64,000 bases of DNA from Candidatus Tayloriibacteriota bacterium (GTDB taxonomy: Bacteria > Patescibacteriota > Minisyncoccia > Phycocordibacterales > PALSA-1337). The stretch's first letter is position 1, and each line of letters begins with the position of its first letter. The notes below the pieces were generated by a model, which was given only the letters and a program-made list of their open reading frames with translations, did no database searches and was not told where the DNA came from. The DNA lies in the NCBI GenBank assembly GCA_943354385.1, contig CALRBR010000001.1:2942-66941 (forward strand). The letters are read 5' to 3'. Positions 33,606 to 45,227 of the stretch are shown piece after piece. The position numbers and the translations under genes are program-made.

Positions 33606-33647
33606 TTTTTGAATAGGGGTAAAAAGTTTGTCGAGTATTGATTAAAA

Positions 33648-33694
33648 TAACTACAGCCCTAAAATTTTCAGTAGAAAATTTTAGGGCTGTAGTT
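33648..33694. promoter_or_regulatory. perfect 20-bp-stem hairpin in the leader or promoter region of the giant gene
   Basis: aactacagccctaaaattttc agtaga gaaaattttagggctgtagtt. No T-tract follows. tatataat lies 12 nt upstream of ATG 33746. Confidence 0.5.
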
Positions 33695-33745
33695 ATCCAC
33701 ACATACACACAGACTTTTCCTATTATTAGGTATATAATTGTACCT

Positions 33746-36700
33746 ATGCGTTTAGCAAAGTTATTTTTTGCTTCTATCCTTTTTATTTTCGGCTCGTTGT
33801 TTTTTGTATCTACGGCATCGGCGCAGTCTTTTCAGAATCCTCTTCTGTTTGTTCCATTCGAATTGGATTATGTCGACTATAGCTCCAATAAGCTCTATAG
33901 CAACTGGTTTACAGGAGGAGCTCCGGCCGACATTGATACAAGTATAAAAAAATTCGGTTCCGCTTCCGGCCATTTTCCAGCTACGGGAATAGATAGGGAG
34001 ATGTTATACAAAAGCCCTAATTTTGATTTCTCTAATCAAGATTTCACCATCGATTTCTGGTGGTATCCAACCACCCAAAGCGTGGGTTTTTTTAATAAAC
34101 CACTACTTTCTTTTTGGGATCTCAATGGAAGTGGTGGCATCAATAATGTTAAGTGGGCTTTAATCTATTTTAGTGAATATGATTTTTTTGCGGTGGTTGA
34201 TTACAATAAGGGAGTAATTCTACGTTCGATTGATAGTGGTGGACTATTAAATTTTAACCAATGGAATCATATATCTGTACAATGGAAGCAGGGGACAGGG
34301 GGTACCGATGGTGGCAGTGGGCTGGGTATTTCTATAAATGGCAAGATGCGTTCGTCAAACTCTTTTTATAACAATGGCATGATCCCGTCTGGGGTGGGTG
34401 CTATGGTGGTTGGAGACAGTGGTTCATCCTGGCCACGCGTCGATTATTATCTGGATGAACTTCGTGTTACAAAAGGTACAGCTCTATGGGGAAGCGTCGC
34501 CAATCAGAACGGTTCCTTTACCACTCCATCTATTAATGATTATCCAAAAATTGAAAACAAGACAGCGGAATCTGTTATAAGTACTACCGCTACACCCATG
34601 GTTCAAGGTACCATACCTCTTCTACTCGCGCATTTTGATAATAATTATTATGATAATAGTATAAATAATATTTACAGCAATTGGTTTATTGGCGGGGGAC
34701 CGTCTGAGATTGATTCGGCTATAAAAAAGTTTGGGATTGGGTCGGGACATTTTTCTGCAACAGGAATAGATAAGGAGAATCTATACCAAGACCCTCGGTT
34801 AGACCTTGCGAGCGGCGATTTTACTGTAGATTTCTGGTGGCGTCCGACAGGTGATTTGACTAGCTTTAATAAAATCCTATTGAGTTTTTGGGGTCTTGAT
34901 GCAAATAGTCTCATAAAAGATCGGAAGTGGTATCTAAAATATGACGGGAGTGGGGCGAACCCAGGTTTTGAAGTGGTTAATGATCAGGGTAGAATGCTTC
35001 GCTGGATGGGTAGCGATTCGCTTTTGAAGGTCAACGAATGGAATCATATTTCTCTACAAAAGAAACAGGGATCAGGGGGTAGTGATGGTGGTAGTGGTCT
35101 CGGTCTTTCTATCAATGGATATATGCGACCGTCCAATTCTTTCTATAACTACGGCACCCTTCCAGGAGGGGTTGGTGCGATGGTCCTAGGGTATAAAGAT
35201 ACAAGTTTCCCGAGAGTTGATTACTATATTGACGAACTTCGTGTCACAAAAGGTACAGCTCTCTGGGGGAATGTTAGTAATCAGAATGGTTACTTTGCTC
35301 CGCCCACAAAAGGTGATTATTCCAATCTAGTAGTAGATCAAAATAAAGTAACTACTCCTGTCGCTGGTCATATTGATACGCATACTGTCTCCCTTGGTAA
35401 CACCACTGATACTACTGAATCAAATGTTGCCTATTCTGCATGCCCTCCTGGATCGACCAGGCCATCTACACGCGAAGAGTATTTGATCAAACTCGACGGC
35501 ACCCCAAAGTTCACGAGCTATCTTGATATAAACAATAAGCTGATCTGTACGACGTATTGGGCAGGTAATGCGACAACCACTACCAGTAGTAAGCTAAAGC
35601 GTTTTGAGTACGATACTGATGGTCAGATCGCTCGAGAGATCTATTATGGTTTGGACGGTGCAAGTATTACTGATGTGGTGACTTATTTTTCAAAATCTGC
35701 CGGAGGTGCTCGTCAAAAGGAGATTCAAAATCGAAGCGGTACCGAATATTACAAGCGCTACTCGACTACCGGCAGACTTCTCTATGAGCACGAATATAAA
35801 AATAGTCAGTATGTAGTGTCGCGTAACTTTACGTATGATGGGGCAGGTAGACTCGCAAGCGAACTTATCTTTAACTCATCGGTTCAATATGAAAAAGTCG
35901 TTTATATACGAAATGGCAGTGGAGTCGTAACACAGACAGATAGTTACAGAGCGTATGCACCGATAGGTACAGATACGGCAAATTATGTCCACACCACCTC
36001 TACCTACGCAGGTACGGTGGTGACAGGTATTACTCGTACTTATTTCAATAAAGATGCTGGCTCACCGACGGCTTTGCGCACTGAAATAGCCCGATATAAT
36101 ACTTCCGGTGTAGCGATAGATCAGAGGACATTTGACTACGCTCAAAATAAACAAAAGTTGAGTACCTACATCACTACTGGCACAGCATCATTGCTTGGGC
36201 GACTGAAGACAGACGAGGAGTGGTCTACTGTGGATTATTCATACGCCTCATCTTCTCTTGCGTATAACACGACTACCGGCGAGCTCCTTTCTTGGACTAA
36301 AACCAACTATGACGATATGAGTGCTCAGGGCGCAAAAGCTGGATACTACGGGAAAAAATACACGGTGTATAACCCTAAAACAGGCTTACCCAAAACGGAG
36401 GATTTTATTGACTACTATTTACCTAGCTTAAATTGGAAACAATCCAACTCTGTTAAGTATGATGAAAAAGGTTTGGTGGATGCACGTCGGGTTCATCAGT
36501 ACAGAGATTCTGCTGCTGCAAGATTTAACTACATATCTACAGTATATTCAAAAGACGGGCTCATAAATGCGATTTCAAAGTATGACGATGTGACTGGTAA
36601 TGTTCTTTCTAACGAAACATATTATGGAAATGGCGAGCCTTGGTATCTTCAAAAATATAAGTACAATACTGCCGCTGGCCAATACGAAGTCAGTTCTTTC

Positions 36701-39700
36701 AGGGTAAATTATAGGGATGCTCTTTCTACCAGTACGGCGAGTGATCTTGTAGCTGACGGTACTGCCGTGAATACAAATCTCCTTGTTTTTGTGAGTCAGT
36801 CAGTCCCGAGAGACCCACTTAGTCAAAAGAAAATAGGTGATAAGATCTTGGCTAATATTTCTGATGTGTCTCTTCGTGGCCAAGCGGAGGGCGGTACTGA
36901 AAAGTTGGCTATTCGTGCGGTGCTCAAGGCTCTCTTACCAGAGTATAAAAACGCCCTCGTTACTGTTTCTGAAAGTGATCCACTCAAAAAGGAAAAACGT
37001 TACGAGATCTACGTGGCGTATTCCTCGAGAATATCTAGAGCGATTTATGCAATAGAGTATCGTATCCATAATATATCAAAAAATCTTAATACAGATAAGT
37101 CCTTAGAGGACACGGTGGTGGGATGGTATGGTATAGACGGTACTGATCTTTCAGGCAACACAGAATTCTGGGGTCTATATATACGACCGGGGGCAGTGGC
37201 GTATGCAGATCCAGAAGCTGTCTATGTAGACATGAGTATCATAGATCCATCTGCGGTTGATTTTGCCACAAACGCTTCTTCCTACGATGACCTCAAGAGT
37301 ACTGCAAAGAAAATAGAAAAATGGGACGCGCTCAGCCAGGGTGCGGGTGTCTCATATTCGAATAGTACTCTATCATTGTCATTGTTCAACCTATCCGGCG
37401 GCGACGGTAGATACATCACACTTGATGATATGACAAAAGCTGACCCAACAGTAAATCTTACATTGGATAGGTTTGAGGAGGACATGAAGACTTCGGGGGT
37501 AACACTCTCCACTCTTAGTGAGTCGGCGCTCATAGATAAGATGTATGAATACTTTAATAAACAAAGCTATTTCAGCTATTCGTACGACCTATCACAAGTA
37601 TCACAGACAGTAAATCAAACCTTGGTACGTAAAGGTGGAGATTGTGAAGATTTTGGTCTATTCTTCCTTAGTTTATTGAGGGGTGAATTTGCTAGACTCG
37701 GTAACACATCTATCACAAGCAGACTTGGTTTGGCGTTTGCGAATGTTGATAATAACGCTGCTATTTCGTCGAGTAACCGCGGAGGAGGTCATGCGTCTAT
37801 TGTGTATAGAAGTAATGCAGACAATCAGTACTACTATATTGATGCAAGCTTTATATTTTTGGGATCAGGGGCGGATCCTGCGAGACCTGTACCAGTAGCA
37901 CGTAATCTTGTAAACTCTGCCGGTGCCAGTACCGCAGGTGTATTGGGTCAGGGTGGCTGGTATGTAAAGGTTGCTGACTTCTTCCCAATAAACGGCCCAC
38001 TTGTCCCTTTTAATTCAGGACGTATTAGTACTTTCCACGATAACACCAGCCAGACTAATTCCGTAGATACCATTGTCGCCCAAGTTTCAAATATCTACAC
38101 CAAACTAGAACCATACAATCCGCTAGTCACCACACTTGCTTCGAGTACAGTCCAGACTATTCCTAACTTCAAAAATCAGTCAGCGGAGTTTGTGGTAGAA
38201 AGTACGCACAGCTTCTTTAATAAACTGAAAGATTACAGAGCCGATCAGGGAGCAGATATCTGGAGTGGTGTAGGTCAGACATTGCCAGCGGTTATAAAAG
38301 CAGACGGCACAGTCAATCTCGCTGGGAAGATTTCTGGCGACTGTGAGGACCTGGCTTTTGCTGAAGCGAGCCTCCTTGAAAATGTGCTTCTACGATATTA
38401 CCTTGCTGGTGGTGCCGTGCCACAAAATGCCGCCAATCAGGCAAAAAGTAATGTCATAATACTCGCTGAAAAGAATTACGGCTCATCGACAGGTCCCTCA
38501 CATCTCTATGTCGGCTATGTGACCCCTAAGACAGATACTTCTCCAGCTGTTGTCCGTCTCATTGATCCACAGCTCGGCACTATCGGCGCACCTCAGCTCA
38601 TGAGCGATTTGTATAACGACAAGTATCTATTCTTTTCTGACCGGGAAAAGGTGAGTGCGATTACTCCATACGATTGGAGTGCACTCAATTTTTCTTCTGC
38701 TGTAGCTGCCGCTGCTGCAAATGGTATCGTGTTAAATCCTGGTCCGGTAGATCCAAAGGCTCCGGTAAAGCAGAATCTCACCCCTAATCAACAGGAAGCG
38801 ATCATTAATGCGATAGTCACTGCAGACCCACCAAAGCCAAGTGCATTCAGTACATTTATTAGTTTTGTGTACGAAAAATCCGGACTAAAATCGATACTAG
38901 AGGCGAGTACTATTACAGAAACTTTTGTCCGAGCAGCAGCAACTTTGGCAGTGATGATAGGTGGTGGACCAGTAGGGACAGTAGTCACAGCATCTGGCAC
39001 TATTATTAATACAGCCTCAGGGTCACCAGCAGATAAGCCTATCATTCCTAGCGTAGGTGATGCAGCGGTTTCTGTTATAAATACTGCAGGGCGAGTCGTG
39101 GCGAGTGTTTTCGGTATCTTTACGGCACCAGGTGGACCATCTGATATGTCTGACGCACGAATGAACGCTGAGGCAGCTTTTGCTGCTGGGAGAATCAGTC
39201 CAGCTGGACCAATGAATTTCGGTTCCGGTGCTGGAGATGTAGGTTGCTCCGCGGCTTCATGCGGTACTGTTTTTGTCCAAAGAAATAATACTACAAATGT
39301 GGTATCTGCGATTGGCTATGGTGAAACATCTCGTACTAATCAGACTAGGTCGTATAACGAGTCTACTAATGTGATGACCATTACTACCAATACCACGATT
39401 GTACTACCTCTGTCGCCATATTTTCAGTCGCCAACAGCCCGTCTTATACCGCCAAAACCTACATGCCCCCTAGGCACCCAACTTTGTTCCGAGGTAACCA
39501 ATGAGATAGTTAGAGCTCCAGCAAACGCCACTCTTTCCGGTCCTCTGGCTACCTGCTATGTTTCTGGTGAAGCACCGTCTTGTCAGACGCGTCAGTACAA
39601 TACACAGTGGTCGTGCAATAACTCACTTTTGTATAAAAAAGATGCTACAGGTACAGGCTGTATCTGTGATGATCCAACAGCAACTGGTGTTAGTCCAGCG

Positions 39701-40576
39701 GGTGAGTGTCAGTACGGCGCGACGATATCCTGTGTGGGGGGTATTGATCCAAACGCCATACCGTCACCAGTAGGTGTTGGTGCGAAAGGGGTCAGTTCAT
39801 TCCCTGCTCCAGCTGGCCGAATTTCTTCTCCGCTAGCGTGGACACTTTCTAGTACAGCTGTTGCGGACGGTAATACCGAATGTAAATGGTCGTGTGGTAC
39901 CGGGTTTACTTTTGACGCTGGATTTTGTAAATCGAGTCAAGTATTTTCTTGCACGGATCCTGTCGGAGTTACACCGATGAATAGTCCAAAGATGACTTTG
40001 TGTCCAGAAGATCAGAGAGATCTTTCTTCAGACACACAAGGTGTAATTGTCACTAGCTGTACCATCCCTAAAAAATGTGAGTATACATGCAATCTTCCTA
40101 CGTATACACGTTCCTCGACACCACCATTTTCTTGTGTTTGCTCGATAGGGACAAACCCTGATGGATCGTGTACACTGCCCACCGTGACTTCTTCTAACGT
40201 GAGTATCTTTGCTACCCCTGGAACAAAAGTTACTGGTAATATTGTAACTCAATATCTGGATACTAATAAATCAACCGCTATTAATAAAAAGATTACCGTA
40301 AAAAAGAACCAGGAGTTTAAATTGAATTGGGAGCATACTACACCAAGCGCCTCAGGTAAATGTACGCCAACATTTACCAGTCCTATTACTGGCACTGGTG
40401 CGGAAGCACTATGGAAAGAAGTCCTACCTACTGGAGTGAATGGTTCAAAGGAGGGTTTGAAACTAGATAAAACCGGCCAGTATATCTTTGGAGTTTCTTG
40501 TGATTCAGGAGGTATAACTTCTGCAGATTCCGTAACTGTACAAGTAGCACCATCCGGTTCATTTGAAGAATTTTAA
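33746..40576 (+). CDS. giant secreted multidomain protein: signal peptide, 2x LamG-like (Laminin_G_3-type), YD/RHS repeats, 2x transglutaminase-like cysteine-protease cores, Cys-rich region, C-terminal beta domain
   Basis: Signal peptide MRLAKLFFASILFIFGSLFFVSTASA. Two ~230-aa units ending in LDELRVTKGTALWG (LamG-type). FEYDTDGQIAREIYYG and FTYDGAGRLASE YD repeats. GGDCEDFG...GGGHASIVYRS...YYIDAS and GDCEDLAFAEASLL...HLYVGY...IDPQ (transglutaminase-like Cys/His/Asp cores). More than 30 Cys between nt 39470 and 40190. Confidence 0.85.
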   Translation: MRLAKLFFASILFIFGSLFFVSTASAQSFQNPLLFVPFELDYVDYSSNKLYSNWFTGGAPADIDTSIKKFGSASGHFPATGIDREMLYKSPNFDFSNQDFTIDFWWYPTTQSVGFFNKPLLSFWDLNGSGGINNVKWALIYFSEYDFFAVVDYNKGVILRSIDSGGLLNFNQWNHISVQWKQGTGGTDGGSGLGISINGKMRSSNSFYNNGMIPSGVGAMVVGDSGSSWPRVDYYLDELRVTKGTALWGSVANQNGSFTTPSINDYPKIENKTAESVISTTATPMVQGTIPLLLAHFDNNYYDNSINNIYSNWFIGGGPSEIDSAIKKFGIGSGHFSATGIDKENLYQDPRLDLASGDFTVDFWWRPTGDLTSFNKILLSFWGLDANSLIKDRKWYLKYDGSGANPGFEVVNDQGRMLRWMGSDSLLKVNEWNHISLQKKQGSGGSDGGSGLGLSINGYMRPSNSFYNYGTLPGGVGAMVLGYKDTSFPRVDYYIDELRVTKGTALWGNVSNQNGYFAPPTKGDYSNLVVDQNKVTTPVAGHIDTHTVSLGNTTDTTESNVAYSACPPGSTRPSTREEYLIKLDGTPKFTSYLDINNKLICTTYWAGNATTTTSSKLKRFEYDTDGQIAREIYYGLDGASITDVVTYFSKSAGGARQKEIQNRSGTEYYKRYSTTGRLLYEHEYKNSQYVVSRNFTYDGAGRLASELIFNSSVQYEKVVYIRNGSGVVTQTDSYRAYAPIGTDTANYVHTTSTYAGTVVTGITRTYFNKDAGSPTALRTEIARYNTSGVAIDQRTFDYAQNKQKLSTYITTGTASLLGRLKTDEEWSTVDYSYASSSLAYNTTTGELLSWTKTNYDDMSAQGAKAGYYGKKYTVYNPKTGLPKTEDFIDYYLPSLNWKQSNSVKYDEKGLVDARRVHQYRDSAAARFNYISTVYSKDGLINAISKYDDVTGNVLSNETYYGNGEPWYLQKYKYNTAAGQYEVSSFRVNYRDALSTSTASDLVADGTAVNTNLLVFVSQSVPRDPLSQKKIGDKILANISDVSLRGQAEGGTEKLAIRAVLKALLPEYKNALVTVSESDPLKKEKRYEIYVAYSSRISRAIYAIEYRIHNISKNLNTDKSLEDTVVGWYGIDGTDLSGNTEFWGLYIRPGAVAYADPEAVYVDMSIIDPSAVDFATNASSYDDLKSTAKKIEKWDALSQGAGVSYSNSTLSLSLFNLSGGDGRYITLDDMTKADPTVNLTLDRFEEDMKTSGVTLSTLSESALIDKMYEYFNKQSYFSYSYDLSQVSQTVNQTLVRKGGDCEDFGLFFLSLLRGEFARLGNTSITSRLGLAFANVDNNAAISSSNRGGGHASIVYRSNADNQYYYIDASFIFLGSGADPARPVPVARNLVNSAGASTAGVLGQGGWYVKVADFFPINGPLVPFNSGRISTFHDNTSQTNSVDTIVAQVSNIYTKLEPYNPLVTTLASSTVQTIPNFKNQSAEFVVESTHSFFNKLKDYRADQGADIWSGVGQTLPAVIKADGTVNLAGKISGDCEDLAFAEASLLENVLLRYYLAGGAVPQNAANQAKSNVIILAEKNYGSSTGPSHLYVGYVTPKTDTSPAVVRLIDPQLGTIGAPQLMSDLYNDKYLFFSDREKVSAITPYDWSALNFSSAVAAAAANGIVLNPGPVDPKAPVKQNLTPNQQEAIINAIVTADPPKPSAFSTFISFVYEKSGLKSILEASTITETFVRAAATLAVMIGGGPVGTVVTASGTIINTASGSPADKPIIPSVGDAAVSVINTAGRVVASVFGIFTAPGGPSDMSDARMNAEAAFAAGRISPAGPMNFGSGAGDVGCSAASCGTVFVQRNNTTNVVSAIGYGETSRTNQTRSYNESTNVMTITTNTTIVLPLSPYFQSPTARLIPPKPTCPLGTQLCSEVTNEIVRAPANATLSGPLATCYVSGEAPSCQTRQYNTQWSCNNSLLYKKDATGTGCICDDPTATGVSPAGECQYGATISCVGGIDPNAIPSPVGVGAKGVSSFPAPAGRISSPLAWTLSSTAVADGNTECKWSCGTGFTFDAGFCKSSQVFSCTDPVGVTPMNSPKMTLCPEDQRDLSSDTQGVIVTSCTIPKKCEYTCNLPTYTRSSTPPFSCVCSIGTNPDGSCTLPTVTSSNVSIFATPGTKVTGNIVTQYLDTNKSTAINKKITVKKNQEFKLNWEHTTPSASGKCTPTFTSPITGTGAEALWKEVLPTGVNGSKEGLKLDKTGQYIFGVSCDSGGITSADSVTVQVAPSGSFEEF

Positions 40577-41140: not shown

Positions 41141-41254
41141 GTCTTTTCTATACCTAAAGAGAAATACTTAAAATCTTTGACATTTATGTTTAATGGGTGT
41201 ATAATAGGGTTTGAAGTATAGGAATGGTTTCTATACGCACTCTTACATGTTTTT

Positions 41255-41665
41255 ATGAAAATAATGTTCTCGGCACTTGTTGCCACGGTCATGATCGGCC
41301 TCGGCACCGGCTGTGTTACAGCTGATCGCACCTCTTTGGTCGGTCTCCCAGTCCACACCACTCCTGTTGGCTCTACGGTTAAGACCAACGGAGTCGCTGT
41401 TGGAGTCACTCCGGTTACTATCACCTTGCCTAGAATGGCAGGGAAGAAAGGGAACGAAGTCGCGGTCACGGTGATCCTCGAAGGTTACCAGACACAGGAC
41501 TTCGTCATGCGGTCCCGCATATCCTGGGAGGGTTTCTTTTTCCTCCTTCAACGCTTCCCAGTCACACTTATTTTCGGGAAGTCAGCCTCCGAGCCAGGGT
41601 CAGCACTTGACCTGGTCCCTAGGCAAATAGACACAGTGCTTATCCCACTTCGTCCCGCAGATTAA
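41255..41665 (+). CDS. PEGA-domain lipoprotein
   Basis: Lipobox LGTGC. VHTTPVGSTVKTNGVAVGVTPVTITLP...VAVTVILEGYQ fits the PEGA consensus. Confidence 0.6.
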   Translation: MKIMFSALVATVMIGLGTGCVTADRTSLVGLPVHTTPVGSTVKTNGVAVGVTPVTITLPRMAGKKGNEVAVTVILEGYQTQDFVMRSRISWEGFFFLLQRFPVTLIFGKSASEPGSALDLVPRQIDTVLIPLRPAD

Positions 41666-41696
41666 GCTCGGTGAGAGGCTCATATCTCACCAAACT

Positions 41697-41728
41697 CCCG
41701 CGTACCCCAAGGTCGCGGGTTTTGTTTT
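41697..41728 (+). terminator. rho-independent terminator
   Basis: cccgcg-taccccaaggt-cgcggg followed by TTTTGTTTT. Confidence 0.7.
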
Positions 41729-41859: not shown

Positions 41860-41903
41860 TTCTTCTACATTAATATTGCGACCGCAATATTAATGTAGAA
41901 GAG
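41860..41903. repeat. 44-bp palindrome IR-L (21-bp arms, centre AC) immediately 3' of the PaaX-like gene
   Basis: ttcttctacattaatattgcg ac cgcaatattaatgtagaagagg. It is the reverse complement of the copy at 42589-42634. Confidence 0.9.
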
Positions 41904-41911
41904 GCGTGTAG

Positions 41912-42502
41912 TTAATTTTTTAAATTAAAATACTTACAAATCATCTTGTCACCCTCGAGTTGATCGACTATCATATAGAGAACATCTTTGCCGATACGCA
42001 AATCTGCCTTCAAAAGAGACACGAGTTTTTCGCACGGATATGGGTATATCCAGACGCTGTTCTGAAGTTTTATAAAGCCGATTGACATTAATGTTGATCG
42101 AAGTTTTTCCCGAATAAACTTCTTTCTTTCTGGAATATCGAAAATAATCACACGCCACTTCTTATCCCACCTTGGCGGATGGTTATTTTGTTTTGAAAAA
42201 AGAATTGCTCGGTCGAGCATCTTTTTGCCCCTTTCTGTGAGTTGAAGTACCTTGCCATGAACTGTGACCTCAACTTTCAGGAAGCCATTTTTGATAAGAT
42301 TATCTTTCGTTCTCAGTATACTTTTGTGTTTGTAATTATAGGCTTTCCTGTCTCCAGAACCGATCTTCAATAATTTTAAGGCATTTGGAGCAAGAAGTCC
42401 GAGTGCAAGTATTCCGGTGGCAGATACAGTTCCAAGTATTATCTGTTGGAGTTTTGTTGTTCGTATCTTGTTCCTCTCCCGTTTTTCTAGTAAGTTGTTC
42501 AT
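41912..42502 (-). CDS. membrane-anchored wHTH plus Cas2-fold (PaaX-family-like) putative regulator
   Basis: N-terminal hydrophobic helix. wHTH-like LIKNGFLKVEVTVHGKVLQLTERGKKML. C-terminal VIIFDIPERKKFIREKLRSTLMSIGFIKLQNSVWIYPYP resembles the Cas2/PaaX C-domain (VxxYDI...RR...L...G.R.Q.SV). Confidence 0.45.
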   Translation of the reverse strand: MNNLLEKRERNKIRTTKLQQIILGTVSATGILALGLLAPNALKLLKIGSGDRKAYNYKHKSILRTKDNLIKNGFLKVEVTVHGKVLQLTERGKKMLDRAILFSKQNNHPPRWDKKWRVIIFDIPERKKFIREKLRSTLMSIGFIKLQNSVWIYPYPCEKLVSLLKADLRIGKDVLYMIVDQLEGDKMICKYFNLKN

Positions 42503-42588
42503 TTTTGTATATAATTTTTCAGCTAAGACATCTTATGTACATATGTGCATATAAATGTTGCTGATACTAATACATAAAGTATATCATA

Positions 42589-42634
42589 CCTCTTCTACAT
42601 TAATATTGCGGTCGCAATATTAATGTAGAAGAGG
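42589..42634. repeat. 46-bp palindrome IR-R (22-bp arms, centre GT), 87 nt upstream of the PaaX-like gene start
   Basis: cctcttctacattaatattgcg gt cgcaatattaatgtagaagagg. Confidence 0.9.
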
Positions 42635-42734
42635 TAATTTTTAATTTTGTCGGACTAGAAGAGGGACGAGAAGAGTTTTGGATCCCATATTACTCTTGTA
42701 ATACGGGTGTTATTTTGCTATAATGGGTGATACT

Positions 42735-45227
42735 ATGGCTAAAGAAAAAGACGAGAAAGCAGTTCCCGAAATCAATCCAAAATTTGTACCCACTCGAGGA
42801 GTAATCGACCGAAACATCACGACCGAAATGCGTGAGTCATACCTAGACTACGCGATGTCCGTGATCACTTCTCGTGCACTTCCAGATGTTCGTGACGGTC
42901 TTAAACCTGTACATCGACGCATTCTTTTTGCGATGAATGAAATGGGTCTCACCTCGTCTTCTCGTTTTAGGAAATCAGCGACAGTTGTAGGAGAGGTGCT
43001 CGGTAAGTATCATCCACACGGCGATGTGGCTGTGTATGAGTCCATGGTAAAAATGGCTCAGACTTTTTCATTCAGGTACCCGCTTATTCTCGGTCAGGGA
43101 AATTTCGGCTCAATCGATGGAGATGGTGCCGCAGCCCATCGATATACCGAGGCAAAAATGTCTCGCCTTTCGAGTGAGCTTTTAAAGGACATAGACAAAG
43201 ATACAGTAGATTTTCGACCCAACTATGACAATACCAAAAAAGAGCCGACCGTACTTCCTTCGGCTGTGCCAGCACTTCTTTTAAACGGTACTCTCGGTAT
43301 TGCTGTCGGTATGGCGACCAACATCCCTCCACACAATCTAAGGGAAGTGGTGGATGCGACCGTACACCTCATCGAGAACAAAGAAGCAACCACTGATGAC
43401 CTCCTTCAGTTCATCAAAGGCCCAGACTTTCCAACTGGCGCTATTATTTACGGAGAAAAAGATATTCATCATGCTTACTCTACTGGACGCGGAGGTATTG
43501 TGGTGCGTGGCGAAGCTGAAATTATTGAAGACAAAAAAGAGAATTTTCAAATCGTCATTACCTCCATTCCATATCGCGTCAACAAGGCCGAGCTTATTAT
43601 GCGCATCGCAGACTTGGTACGAGAAAAAGAAATCGAAGGCATCAAGGGTCTTCGTGATGAGTCCACAAAAGATATTCGCATCGTGATCGATCTAAAAGGT
43701 ACCGCACACCCTCAAAAAGTTCTCAACTTTATTTACAAACATACTCAGCTCGAGGAGAAGTTTCACTTCAATGTGGTGGCTCTTGTCGACGGTGTGCCAA
43801 AAACTCTGTCCCTCAAATCTATTCTTGAGGAGTTCGTATTACATCGACAGATTGTGGTGCGTCGTCGCACTCAATTTGATTTAAATAAAGCAGAAGAGCG
43901 AGAGCATATCCTTCTTGGCCTAAAAAAGGCACTCGATTTTATCGACAGGATTATTAAGATAATCCGTGCTTCAAAAGATGCACCAGAGGCACATGTAAAT
44001 TTGATGAAGGAGTTCAAGTTTTCAGATAAACAGGCTACTGCTATCCTTGAAATGCGTTTACAAAAGCTCGCTGGCCTTGAGCGATTGAAAATAGAGGATG
44101 AGTTGAACGAGGTACAAGCACTGATTGTCGCTCTCAAGGATATACTTGGTAGTGCAAAAAAGATTTTGAGCATTATTAAAGACGAGCTCAAAGAAATTGC
44201 TGATAAATATGGGGACGATCGACGTACCAAGGTTATAAAAAGAGCAGTACAAGAAATGTCAGATGAGGACCTTATTCCTGATGTTGACTCAGTACTTGTT
44301 TTGACCTCAGGTGGATATATCAAGCGCACCGCTCCAGAGGAGTATCGCAGACAAAAAAGAGGTGGTGTTGGTGTGGTAGACCTTGATACCAAGGAGGAGG
44401 ATTTTATTACACATATTATCAATACAAATACCCACGCTGATCTTCTTTTCTTTACAGACAAAGGTAAAGCGTATCAGATAAAGATGCACGAGATTCCTGA
44501 AGGAAAGCGTGCCACAAAAGGGAAGTCAGTGGTCAACTTTATTCAGATTGCGGAAGATGAGCGAGTCACCTCTATTTTACCAATGTCAAAAGAGGTAAAA
44601 AAGAGTAGCCTCAGTCTTTTTATGGTGACTAAAAACGGCGTAGGTAAAAAGTTGAAAGCAGAATCATTCCATGATGTGCGTCGAAGTGGGCTCATCGCTA
44701 TTGGTCTCGATGCTGGTGACAGTCTGGTGTCAGTTCGATTTGTAGAAAAGGGAGATGATATGGTGCTTGCGTCTAGCGAAGGTCAGTCTATTCGATTTAA
44801 AGAATCCGATGTGCGAGAAATGGGCCGTACTGCCATGGGTGTGATCGCAATGCGTCTCGAAAAGGGTGATACGGTGATCGGTGCTGATGTGGTCAGAAAA
44901 AACATGAAAAATCCTGCGCTTCTCGTAATCATGTCAAATGGTTATGGCAAGCAGACTGAGCTTTCAGAATACAAAACACAAAAGCGCGGAGGTTCGGGTA
45001 TTCTTACCGCAAAGATTACAGATAAAACAGGGAAGGTGATTACCTCAAGTGTGGTAGAAGGCGACGTACCAGAAGAAGAGTCTGCTGAGCTTGTGGCTAT
45101 TTCAAAAAAGAGTCAGGTGATCCGATGTACAATTAAAGAAATACCGGTGCTCGGAAGACAGACTCAGGGGGTACGTATCATGAGACTGAGAGATGGAGAC
45201 TCTTTGGCTAGCGCCGTGTGCCTCTAG
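42735..45227 (+). CDS. gyrA: DNA gyrase subunit A
   Basis: [34 protein letters not shown] is near-identical to the GyrA N-terminal signature. The active-site Tyr is in context. The start is assigned to ATG 42735 (MAKEK), which has a GGGTGA SD-like motif upstream. The alternative start is 42723. Confidence 0.9.

Follow-up and report, generated by a model that had tools for sequence, protein, structure and literature searches.

What can two copies of one long palindrome be doing on either side of a single small gene? The question is raised by a locus of a Candidatus Tayloriibacteriota bacterium (Patescibacteriota), which we analysed within a 64-kb stretch of contig CALRBR010000001.1 (positions 2,942 to 66,941). 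This whole stretch is called the window below, and all window coordinates are counted from its first nucleotide. A gene for a 196-aa protein is located there on the reverse strand (41912-42502), with palindrome A (41861-41904) past its 3' end and palindrome B (42589-42634) ahead of its 5' end. Judging from sequence comparisons, the palindromes are probably two private operators of an autoregulating protein encoded between them, which we call 'mini-PaaX' and which would bind both sites and repress its own gene. This reading is based on the linkage between such sites and the gene throughout the protein family, on the location of the upstream site at the promoter, and on the covariation of protein residues with bases of the sites. 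The initial annotation had named a pair of autoregulatory operator sites as one of two possibilities, and these three lines of evidence support it strongly, with binding deduced from them.

Patescibacteria have tiny genomes with few recognisable regulators, and to our knowledge almost nothing is known of transcription control in this group. No publication describing the family was found in literature searches (PaaX, Cas2-like, Patescibacteria, winged helix).

Palindromes A and B and the protein encoded between them

Palindrome A has perfect 20-nt arms (41861-80 and 41883-902) around an AC centre, and palindrome B has perfect 22-nt arms around a GT centre. The two match at 44 out of 44 positions when compared as inverted repeats and at 42 out of 44 as direct repeats. 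They are exact reverse complements of each other, as had been noticed earlier with coordinates 1-3 nt off, and they do bracket the reverse-strand gene, whose open reading frame (ORF) lies between them. The opposite orientation of the AC and GT centres, also pointed out in the initial annotation, is real in the window but is not a rule in the family, where six loci have asymmetric centres in the same orientation and three in the opposite one.

Palindrome A is the predicted downstream operator (D site; 41861..41904, no strand assigned). On the strand of the gene its centre reads GT and is located 30 nt past the stop codon; no promoter element was found beyond the D site in the window. Palindrome B is the predicted upstream operator (U site; 42589..42634, likewise without a strand). 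Its centre, AC on the strand of the gene, is positioned 109 nt ahead of the ATG, within the divergent intergenic region common with gyrA.

The 19-nt half-site CTTCTACATTAATATTGCG occurs four times in 64 kb (0.02 occurrences are expected by chance), and these four are the arms of the two palindromes. The best other match found by sliding the 38-nt site over the window covers 22 of 38 positions, which is also the best score of shuffled sequence. Scanning of the GTDB representative genomes (the source genome is not among them) with the 19-nt half-site has found a single chance match, in Winogradskyella. The size and the perfect dyad symmetry of the palindromes recall REP/BIME (repetitive extragenic palindromic/bacterial interspersed mosaic) elements, so a dispersed repeat could have come to flank the gene by accident. 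However, the window contains two copies only, both at the 196-aa gene, so the palindrome is not abundant there; the GTDB scan gave just the one chance half-site, and the gene-flanking layout with locus-specific sequence recurs in 52 of 72 homologous loci (see below). From the window and the homologous loci, a REP-like origin is extremely improbable.

The identity of the 196-aa protein was established from profile searches, an AlphaFold2 model and Foldseek. Residues 110-182 match the Pfam family PaaX_M (PF20803, the 'central Cas2-like domain' of PaaX) with E = 1.3e-21 and 76.9 bits against a cut-off of 24. The CRISPR_Cas2 family of Pfam stays below its threshold (17.4 vs a cut-off of 23.8), while the NCBIfam cas2 model TIGR01573 passes its own marginally (25.6 vs 24.5) with only residues 117-151 aligned; the Cas2 models of PADLOC match the same residues. 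These profile matches agree with the likeness to PaaX and Cas2 that had been seen by eye. The PaaX equivalog model TIGR02277 scored 35.8 bits, far from its cut-off of 264.55, and covered residues 68-164 only. No PaaX_C match was found in Pfam, and the protein stops at residue 196, directly past the Cas2-like domain.

The AlphaFold2 model was made from 110 homologues and has a pLDDT confidence score of 78. Its N-terminal part consists of helix 2-29, strand 31-33, helices 34-44 and 52-71, hairpin 75-88 and helix 90-106. As modelled, this topology (approximately residues 2-106) is that of a canonical winged helix with 52-71 as the recognition helix and 75-88 as the wing. Residues 116-191 are modelled as strand-helix-strand-strand-helix-strand, i.e., the Cas2-like ferredoxin fold. 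The best Foldseek match in the PDB is E. coli PaaX (8a39, 171 aligned columns), followed by small winged-helix proteins, aligned over about 90 residues, and then by Cas2 structures. Both the modelled topology and these matches bear out the winged-helix segment proposed earlier. The proposed C-terminal likeness to the Cas2/PaaX C-domain holds for the Cas2-like fold, but the domain corresponds to the middle domain of PaaX (PaaX_M) and not to PaaX_C. A membrane anchor had been suggested as well, probably wrongly: the hydrophobic, uncharged N-terminal stretch 21-42 is most likely helix 1, strand 1 and helix 2 of the winged helix, according to a model of moderate confidence at these residues (pLDDT 56-74).

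The Cas2 signature is present as FD122I at the end of strand 1 and Q147-x-S149-V150-W151 in the hairpin, with D122 and the latter motif invariant in 110 sequences; R131 and R135 are also among the conserved features of the Cas2-like domain. In the same set the Cas2-like half of the protein is conserved more strongly than the DNA-reading helix. Searches against Pfam, NCBIfam and with Foldseek have found only the winged helix-turn-helix and Cas2-like parts, and no transposase or recombinase fold.

Site pairs and promoters across the family

The protein belongs to a large family. A word-indexed search has found more than 1,200 relatives at E < 0.001, nearly all of them about 190 aa long, and an exhaustive search yielded 1,674 clusters at 50% identity with E <= 1e-10. 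The named relatives come from Parcubacteria/Patescibacteria metagenome bins. Their public names are inconsistent and include 'CRISPR-associated endonuclease Cas2', 'phenylacetic acid degradation operon negative regulatory protein PaaX', 'PadR family regulator' and 'hypothetical'. The functional names fit the genomic context in no case, and the records named 'CRISPR-associated endonuclease Cas2' are probably misnamed. Several public 'Cas2' and 'PaaX' annotations in Patescibacteria genomes are therefore misleading.

For comparison of the flanks we used 80 metagenomic loci with homologues 36-51% identical to the window protein, of which 72 were testable for flanks and 50 non-redundant ones were used for positions. 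For every locus the 200 nt upstream of the gene were compared with the 200 nt downstream in both orientations, and flanks of mismatched loci served as the control. Flank similarity exceeded the 99th percentile of the controls in 57 of 72 loci, with a mean score of 23.4 vs 9.5 in the controls; the window, with a score of 44, is extreme. A palindromic site is present at both flanks in 52 of the 72 loci.

The family site is about 36 bp long and is composed of half-sites of about 18-19 bp, with a mean G+C content of 34%. Counted from the dyad, an outer box occupies positions -19..-13. It is often ATACAC or ATACAT but differs in many loci and is thus locus-specific. The outer box is separated by a 7 bp A+T-rich spacer from the core beside the dyad, G-C-(T/G)-(A/G), so the complete core reads GC(T/G)R|Y(A/C)GC; C at -3 is found in 99% of arms. 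Most loci have the core GCTA|TAGC; the group to which the window belongs has GCG(R)|(Y)CGC, the window site having TCTACA as its outer box and GCG-RY-CGC as its core. Comparison of the four arms of a locus gives an identity of about 90% for the outer box (-19..-13) as well as the core (-5..-2) and of about 70% for the spacer. Beyond -20 it is at background, and between arms of different loci it amounts to 39-57%. The symmetry within a site is no higher than the identity between the two sites, which means that the constraint acts on four equivalent half-sites and not on hairpin formation as such.

The position of the U site relative to the gene is informative. Its dyad is placed exactly at -17 from the ATG in 15 of the 50 non-redundant loci, and the outer arm (...GTGTATG) then includes the start codon. 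All these 15 loci have a TAnnnT hexamer (TATAAT, TATACT or similar) at -12..-7 from the A of the ATG, which from its sequence looks to be the geometry of a leaderless mRNA. The same hexamer is present at -12..-7 in 25 of 50 loci vs a background of 1.9% per position. These 25 genes leave no room for a ribosome-binding site, implying that leaderless mRNAs would be common for this gene family in Patescibacteria. Most of the remaining loci have a -10-like hexamer, frequently TG-extended, in or shortly past the right arm of the U site. The window has a candidate extended -10 element, TGaTATACT (42578..42586, reverse strand), which begins 3 nt beyond palindrome B, its TATACT part being 6 nt beyond; an alternative -10, TATATA, is located at 42508-42513 on the same strand (-11..-6 from the ATG). 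At the equivalent place, either TGnTATACT or TGnTATAAT occurs in the relatives L090, L091 and L093 (81%, 57% and 55% identity). Since promoter elements are located in or beside the U site, the latter would cover either the promoter or its -35 side.

The D site is also closely tied to the gene: its dyad is located +10 to +72 nt past the stop codon in nearly all loci, and the stop codon is inside an arm in three of them. The orientation of the next gene, co-directional or convergent, makes no difference to the presence of the site. A good -10 hexamer accompanies the D site in just 6 of 50 loci, and a T-run follows it in only 18%. The possibility that the D site is an operator for the next gene was considered and rejected, as this gene is convergent in about 40% of loci and a good -10 hexamer is so rare.

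As single strands, palindromes A and B fold far better than their shuffles (z of -8.8 and -13.7), so they might be structural hairpins which act without the protein, either as intrinsic or bidirectional terminators or as mRNA-stabilising stem-loops. Palindrome B scored as terminator-like on the forward strand, with a T-run, and an extended D site followed by a T-run is found in L091, L093 and L038. However, palindrome B is located between divergent genes, where a terminator is needless, and in the 15 loci with a predicted leaderless mRNA the U site extends just to the start codon and would be untranscribed, so an RNA-level role of the U site was rejected for this class. The low frequency of T-runs after D sites (the window D site lacks one on the strand of the gene), the lack of excess symmetry within a site and the covariation of base identity with protein residues (next section) are likewise at odds with such hairpins. 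Neither a G+C-rich stem nor a U-tract at the end of a transcription unit, the features of an intrinsic terminator, characterises the sites, whose mean G+C is low. We consider the structural explanation very improbable.

The other possibility named in the initial annotation was that of a small mobile cassette, with the palindromes as terminal inverted repeats of an element of about 775 bp moved by the encoded protein. The resemblance to insertion sequences, whose terminal inverted repeats extend over the promoter and the stop codon of the transposase gene, is real: the gene is tightly bounded by two copies with the promoter in the upstream one, and in other loci the arms themselves take in the start codon (upstream) and the stop codon (downstream), an arrangement known from many insertion sequences. 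Distant genomes have different neighbours at the cassette, with 146 of 174 neighbour clusters in the 80 loci being singletons; the whole unit is tandemly duplicated in one locus (L083), and one metagenomic contig breaks inside palindrome B. However, no target-site duplications were found outside the repeats, the mean longest direct match between the outer flanks being 3.2 nt vs 3.5 nt in controls. Besides, no second copy is present in 64 kb, each end is a full palindrome, no transposase or recombinase fold was found, and the asymmetric centres have no consistent orientation. The location is stable as well. Eight contigs of the same species from other assemblies (L001-L008), which are nearly identical to the window and thus uninformative on sequence evolution, keep the cassette beside gyrA wherever their flanks reach. 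The recurrent neighbours, judged by eye from cluster representatives, are mostly housekeeping genes (e.g., gyrA, glycyl-tRNA synthetase-like, SHMT-like), and synteny is retained inside subclades while the palindrome arms diverge. A mobile cassette is therefore not supported, and we regard it as extremely improbable.

Some loci depart from the simple pair of sites. In L083 (1019-2700) each copy of the tandemly duplicated unit comprises the upstream site, the gene and the downstream site; the two proteins are near-identical, each has a site pair of the same sequence type, and an extra ORF of about 70 aa is located between the copies. Three loci have a third copy of their own palindrome 0.4-2.5 kb upstream of the regulator gene (L046 at ~492, L052 at ~1021 and L071 at ~1691), so that a neighbouring gene or operon is bracketed too. 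The third site of L071 has the outer box CACGAC of the related locus L056 in place of CCCACC, which is L071's own.

Covariation of protein residues with bases of the sites

For each site position we took the base in the majority among the four arms of a locus and compared it with every alignment column of the protein. In the outer box, positions -18..-14 covary with residues 57, 60, 61 and 64 (z up to 12). With their i, i+3, i+4, i+7 spacing, these residues share one face of the recognition helix as predicted. In the core, positions -5, -4 and -2 covary with residues 128 and 132 in helix 1 of the Cas2-like domain and with residue 148 in its beta-hairpin.

The pairs can be read as a code. Residues 57/60/61/64 correspond to the outer box as RE[IV]R to ATACAC, RE[IV]S to ATACAT, REYS to ATACGT, QQGK to GTATGA, WYNH to ATTGT and NYSR to TTCCCC. 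At the level of single residues, R64 pairs with C at -14 in all 18 loci and S64 with T in 7 of 9 scorable ones; I or V at 61 pairs with A at -15 and Y61 with G, while E60 pairs with C at -16 and Q60 with A. As to the core, 32 of the 34 loci with D148 have T at -2, and all 8 loci with N148 have G; K, H and Q at this residue, for which few loci are scorable, mostly have G at -2. K128 pairs with G at -4. The window obeys both rules, having R64 with C at -14 and N148 with a GCG core. Outer-box and core types assort independently: for example, REIR proteins are found with four different cores.

On a tree built without the covarying columns, the T/G state at -2 requires about 12 changes vs 13.2 for randomly assigned labels. 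The state thus appears at scattered points of the tree, where its pairing with residue 148 is met again in many lineages and was not inherited once; the parsimony count is near its ceiling, so it demonstrates scatter without proving coincident changes. Descent alone would hardly produce covarying residues of such structural coherence.

The covariation provides a predicted residue-to-base recognition code for the mini-PaaX family. Combined with the site search, it supplies a predicted operator for each member of a family of about 1,700 clusters at 50% identity, together with a promoter model that is often leaderless. It also indicates that a Cas2-fold domain can take part in the reading of DNA sequence.

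Proposed mode of action, known systems and neighbouring genes

We propose the following scheme. The mini-PaaX protein would consist of a winged helix and a Cas2-like domain serving in dimerisation and DNA contact, without the ligand-binding C-domain of PaaX. A symmetric dimer is envisaged to lie along about 36 bp, as the geometry of the site suggests; each winged helix would read the outer box specific to its locus, some 16 bp off the dyad (TCTACA in the window), and the pair of Cas2-like domains would read the conserved core at the dyad (GCG-RY-CGC in the window). With the U site on or against the -10/-35 region, its occupancy would shut off transcription of the gene, i.e., lead to autorepression. 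The promoterless D site is most likely an auxiliary operator, to judge from its position. It could cooperate with the U site through a loop of about 600-730 bp or, equally possibly, block transcription that enters from the 3' side (antisense or read-through).

E. coli PaaX provides the closest parallel. Its operator is TGATTC(N27)GAATCA, and it represses its own promoter Px by blocking RNA polymerase (PMC9493321). The distance from box to box is about 33 bp in E. coli and about 31 bp here, both near three helical turns, and such spacing fits two winged helices held apart by a Cas2-like dimer. PaaX (PDB 8a39, 3l09, 3kfw), a GntR-like repressor of phenylacetate catabolism in E. coli and Pseudomonas, has the winged helix and PaaX_M in common with our protein. 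In contrast, its C-terminal helical effector (phenylacetyl-CoA) domain is absent from the 196-aa protein, and paa catabolic genes were not seen among the neighbours either in the window (gyrA, PEGA lipoprotein, giant protein) or, by eye, in the 80 loci. The aligned E. coli PaaX and Rv0674 lack the Cas2 signature (FDI, QxSVW) kept by the mini-PaaX family, which in turn has two extras of its own: the central core that covaries with the Cas2-like domain and the second operator past the gene. Since the effector domain is missing, no paa genes were seen nearby and the equivalog model failed, the sequence evidence argues that the 196-aa protein is not a PaaX orthologue, although the system would work like PaaX. 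A PaaX-type repressor with its operator is an already known kind of system. As far as our searches show, the literature contains no description of a large Patescibacteria family whose genes are bracketed by two identical private operators, of a residue-to-base code that can be read in this way, or of apparent sequence reading by a Cas2 fold.

The second parallel is Cas2 itself. In E. coli, the dimer of Cas2 within the Cas1-Cas2-protospacer complex touches the DNA duplex with N10, R14 and R16, where strand 1 ends and helix 1 starts, as well as with R77 and R78 (PMC6395717). The equivalent end of the domain here holds residues 128, 132 and, by fold topology, 148, next to the invariant D122. Both proteins have the ferredoxin-like fold, a strand 1 that ends with an acidic residue, and the QxSV(F/W) motif. 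The differences are the fusion to a winged helix, a DNA contact that appears sequence-specific rather than backbone-only, and the lack of a CRISPR array in the window. As no CRISPR repeat array is present in 64 kb (the window ORFs were not all screened for cas1), the 196-aa protein is probably not a CRISPR Cas2. By-eye inspection of the 80 loci has found no recurrent neighbour family pointing to a cas1 or paa function.

The Cas2 relationship also raises the question of catalysis. The Cas2-fold domain may be viewed as a sequence-reading and possibly catalytic module placed on the dyad of a palindrome of about 36 bp, with the repeat-gene-repeat unit processing its own repeats; we think this unlikely. 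In a stricter form of this reading the domain would cut or nick at the dyad, instead of or besides acting as a repressor, as part of a self-directed unit whose action would result in excision, inversion or a replication/repair signal. An enzyme of this sort would be in keeping with the invariance of the catalytic-position D122 and of Q-x-SVW in 110 sequences, both being absent from the aligned PaaX proteins, with residues 128 and 148, which covary with the core and are located at the same end of the fold as D122 in the modelled topology, with the stronger conservation of the Cas2-like half, and with the internally perfect palindromes kept in the window clade. However, the orientation of the asymmetric centres is random and the cassette is positionally stable, so we consider site-specific cleavage quite unlikely. 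The nuclease activity of Cas2 is dispensable in CRISPR adaptation. If processing did occur, the protein would represent a relative of Cas2 that is inherently specific for palindromic repeats, which bears on how Cas2 met repeat recognition, and the unit could also be a new kind of self-directed DNA element.

A promoter operator combined with a second operator hundreds of bp away is familiar from lambda CI (OR/OL), LacI (O1/O2) and GalR (OE/OI). The private operators of mini-PaaX differ from these in that the second site is found just past the stop codon in nearly every member and that both sites have the same locus-specific sequence; looping is a proposal only.

Several observations weigh against autoregulation through a private operator pair. 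The helical phasing of the U-D distance that looping predicts is not significant, with p of about 0.05 at 10.5 bp; the best period, 11.5 bp (R = 0.30), does not reach the 95% level of jittered controls. In 20 of the 72 testable loci the two flanks do not both have a palindromic site, and in 15 flank similarity is not above the 99th-percentile control. In the window itself the distance from U site to ATG (-109) is the largest among the sampled loci, and the overlap with the promoter hinges on the predicted extended -10. The covariation statistics are only partly corrected for phylogeny. There is no explanation for a regulator in a minimal genome that regulates nothing but itself; the third sites in three loci, 0.4-2.5 kb away, mean that the regulon may be larger. 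Finally, the palindromes of the window clade are longer and more perfect (44 of 44) than a dimer footprint needs, and the two sites of L090 (gene 194-784, 81% identical protein) differ from each other at three positions per arm. Within the palindromes of L090, the arms nevertheless match completely in the downstream one (22/22) and with one mismatch in the upstream one (23/24), suggesting that the two arms of one palindrome were homogenised faster than the two sites, perhaps via template switching. The perfect palindromes of the window clade point to an additional homogenising process or a structural constraint. Private operators are still our preferred reading, and it raises the question of what purpose is served by a self-bracketed autoregulator with a second operator and no other visible targets.

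The gyrA gene adjoins the palindrome B side of the cassette. Its promoter (TTGTAA-17-TATAAT) is located at 42696-42724 and its real start is the ATG at 42736; the -10 element (42719-42724) ends 11 nt ahead of this ATG, making the gene nearly leaderless. The mechanically assigned ORF start at 42723 is too early, and gene calls on the same-species contigs give a product of 830 aa. Between palindrome B and the gyrA promoter there are partial copies of the outermost arm motifs without the core, TAGAAGAGG (42656-42664) and GAGAAGAG (42668-42675), which may be remnants or chance matches. The contig that breaks at palindrome B is the same-species metagenomic contig L007 (k141_1495296, 1-40), which begins inside it. 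A perfect inverted repeat may have misled the assembler here, although the k-mer is longer than 44 nt.

On the other side of the cassette, a convergent gene (41255-41665) codes for a 136-aa PEGA-domain lipoprotein with the lipobox LGTGC. It is preceded by a perfect consensus promoter, TTGACA-17-TATAAT (41177-41205), and a strong hairpin of terminator type, with a T-run, follows at about 41696-41722. A non-coding RNA had been suspected in the G+C-rich stretch 41210-41720 but was rejected in favour of the lipoprotein gene with its own promoter and terminator. Beyond it lies the gene for a 2312-aa secreted or surface protein (33638-40576) with two Laminin_G_3 (concanavalin-like) domains near the N-terminus and long Cys-rich C-terminal repeats. 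Giant proteins of this kind are typical of Patescibacteria.

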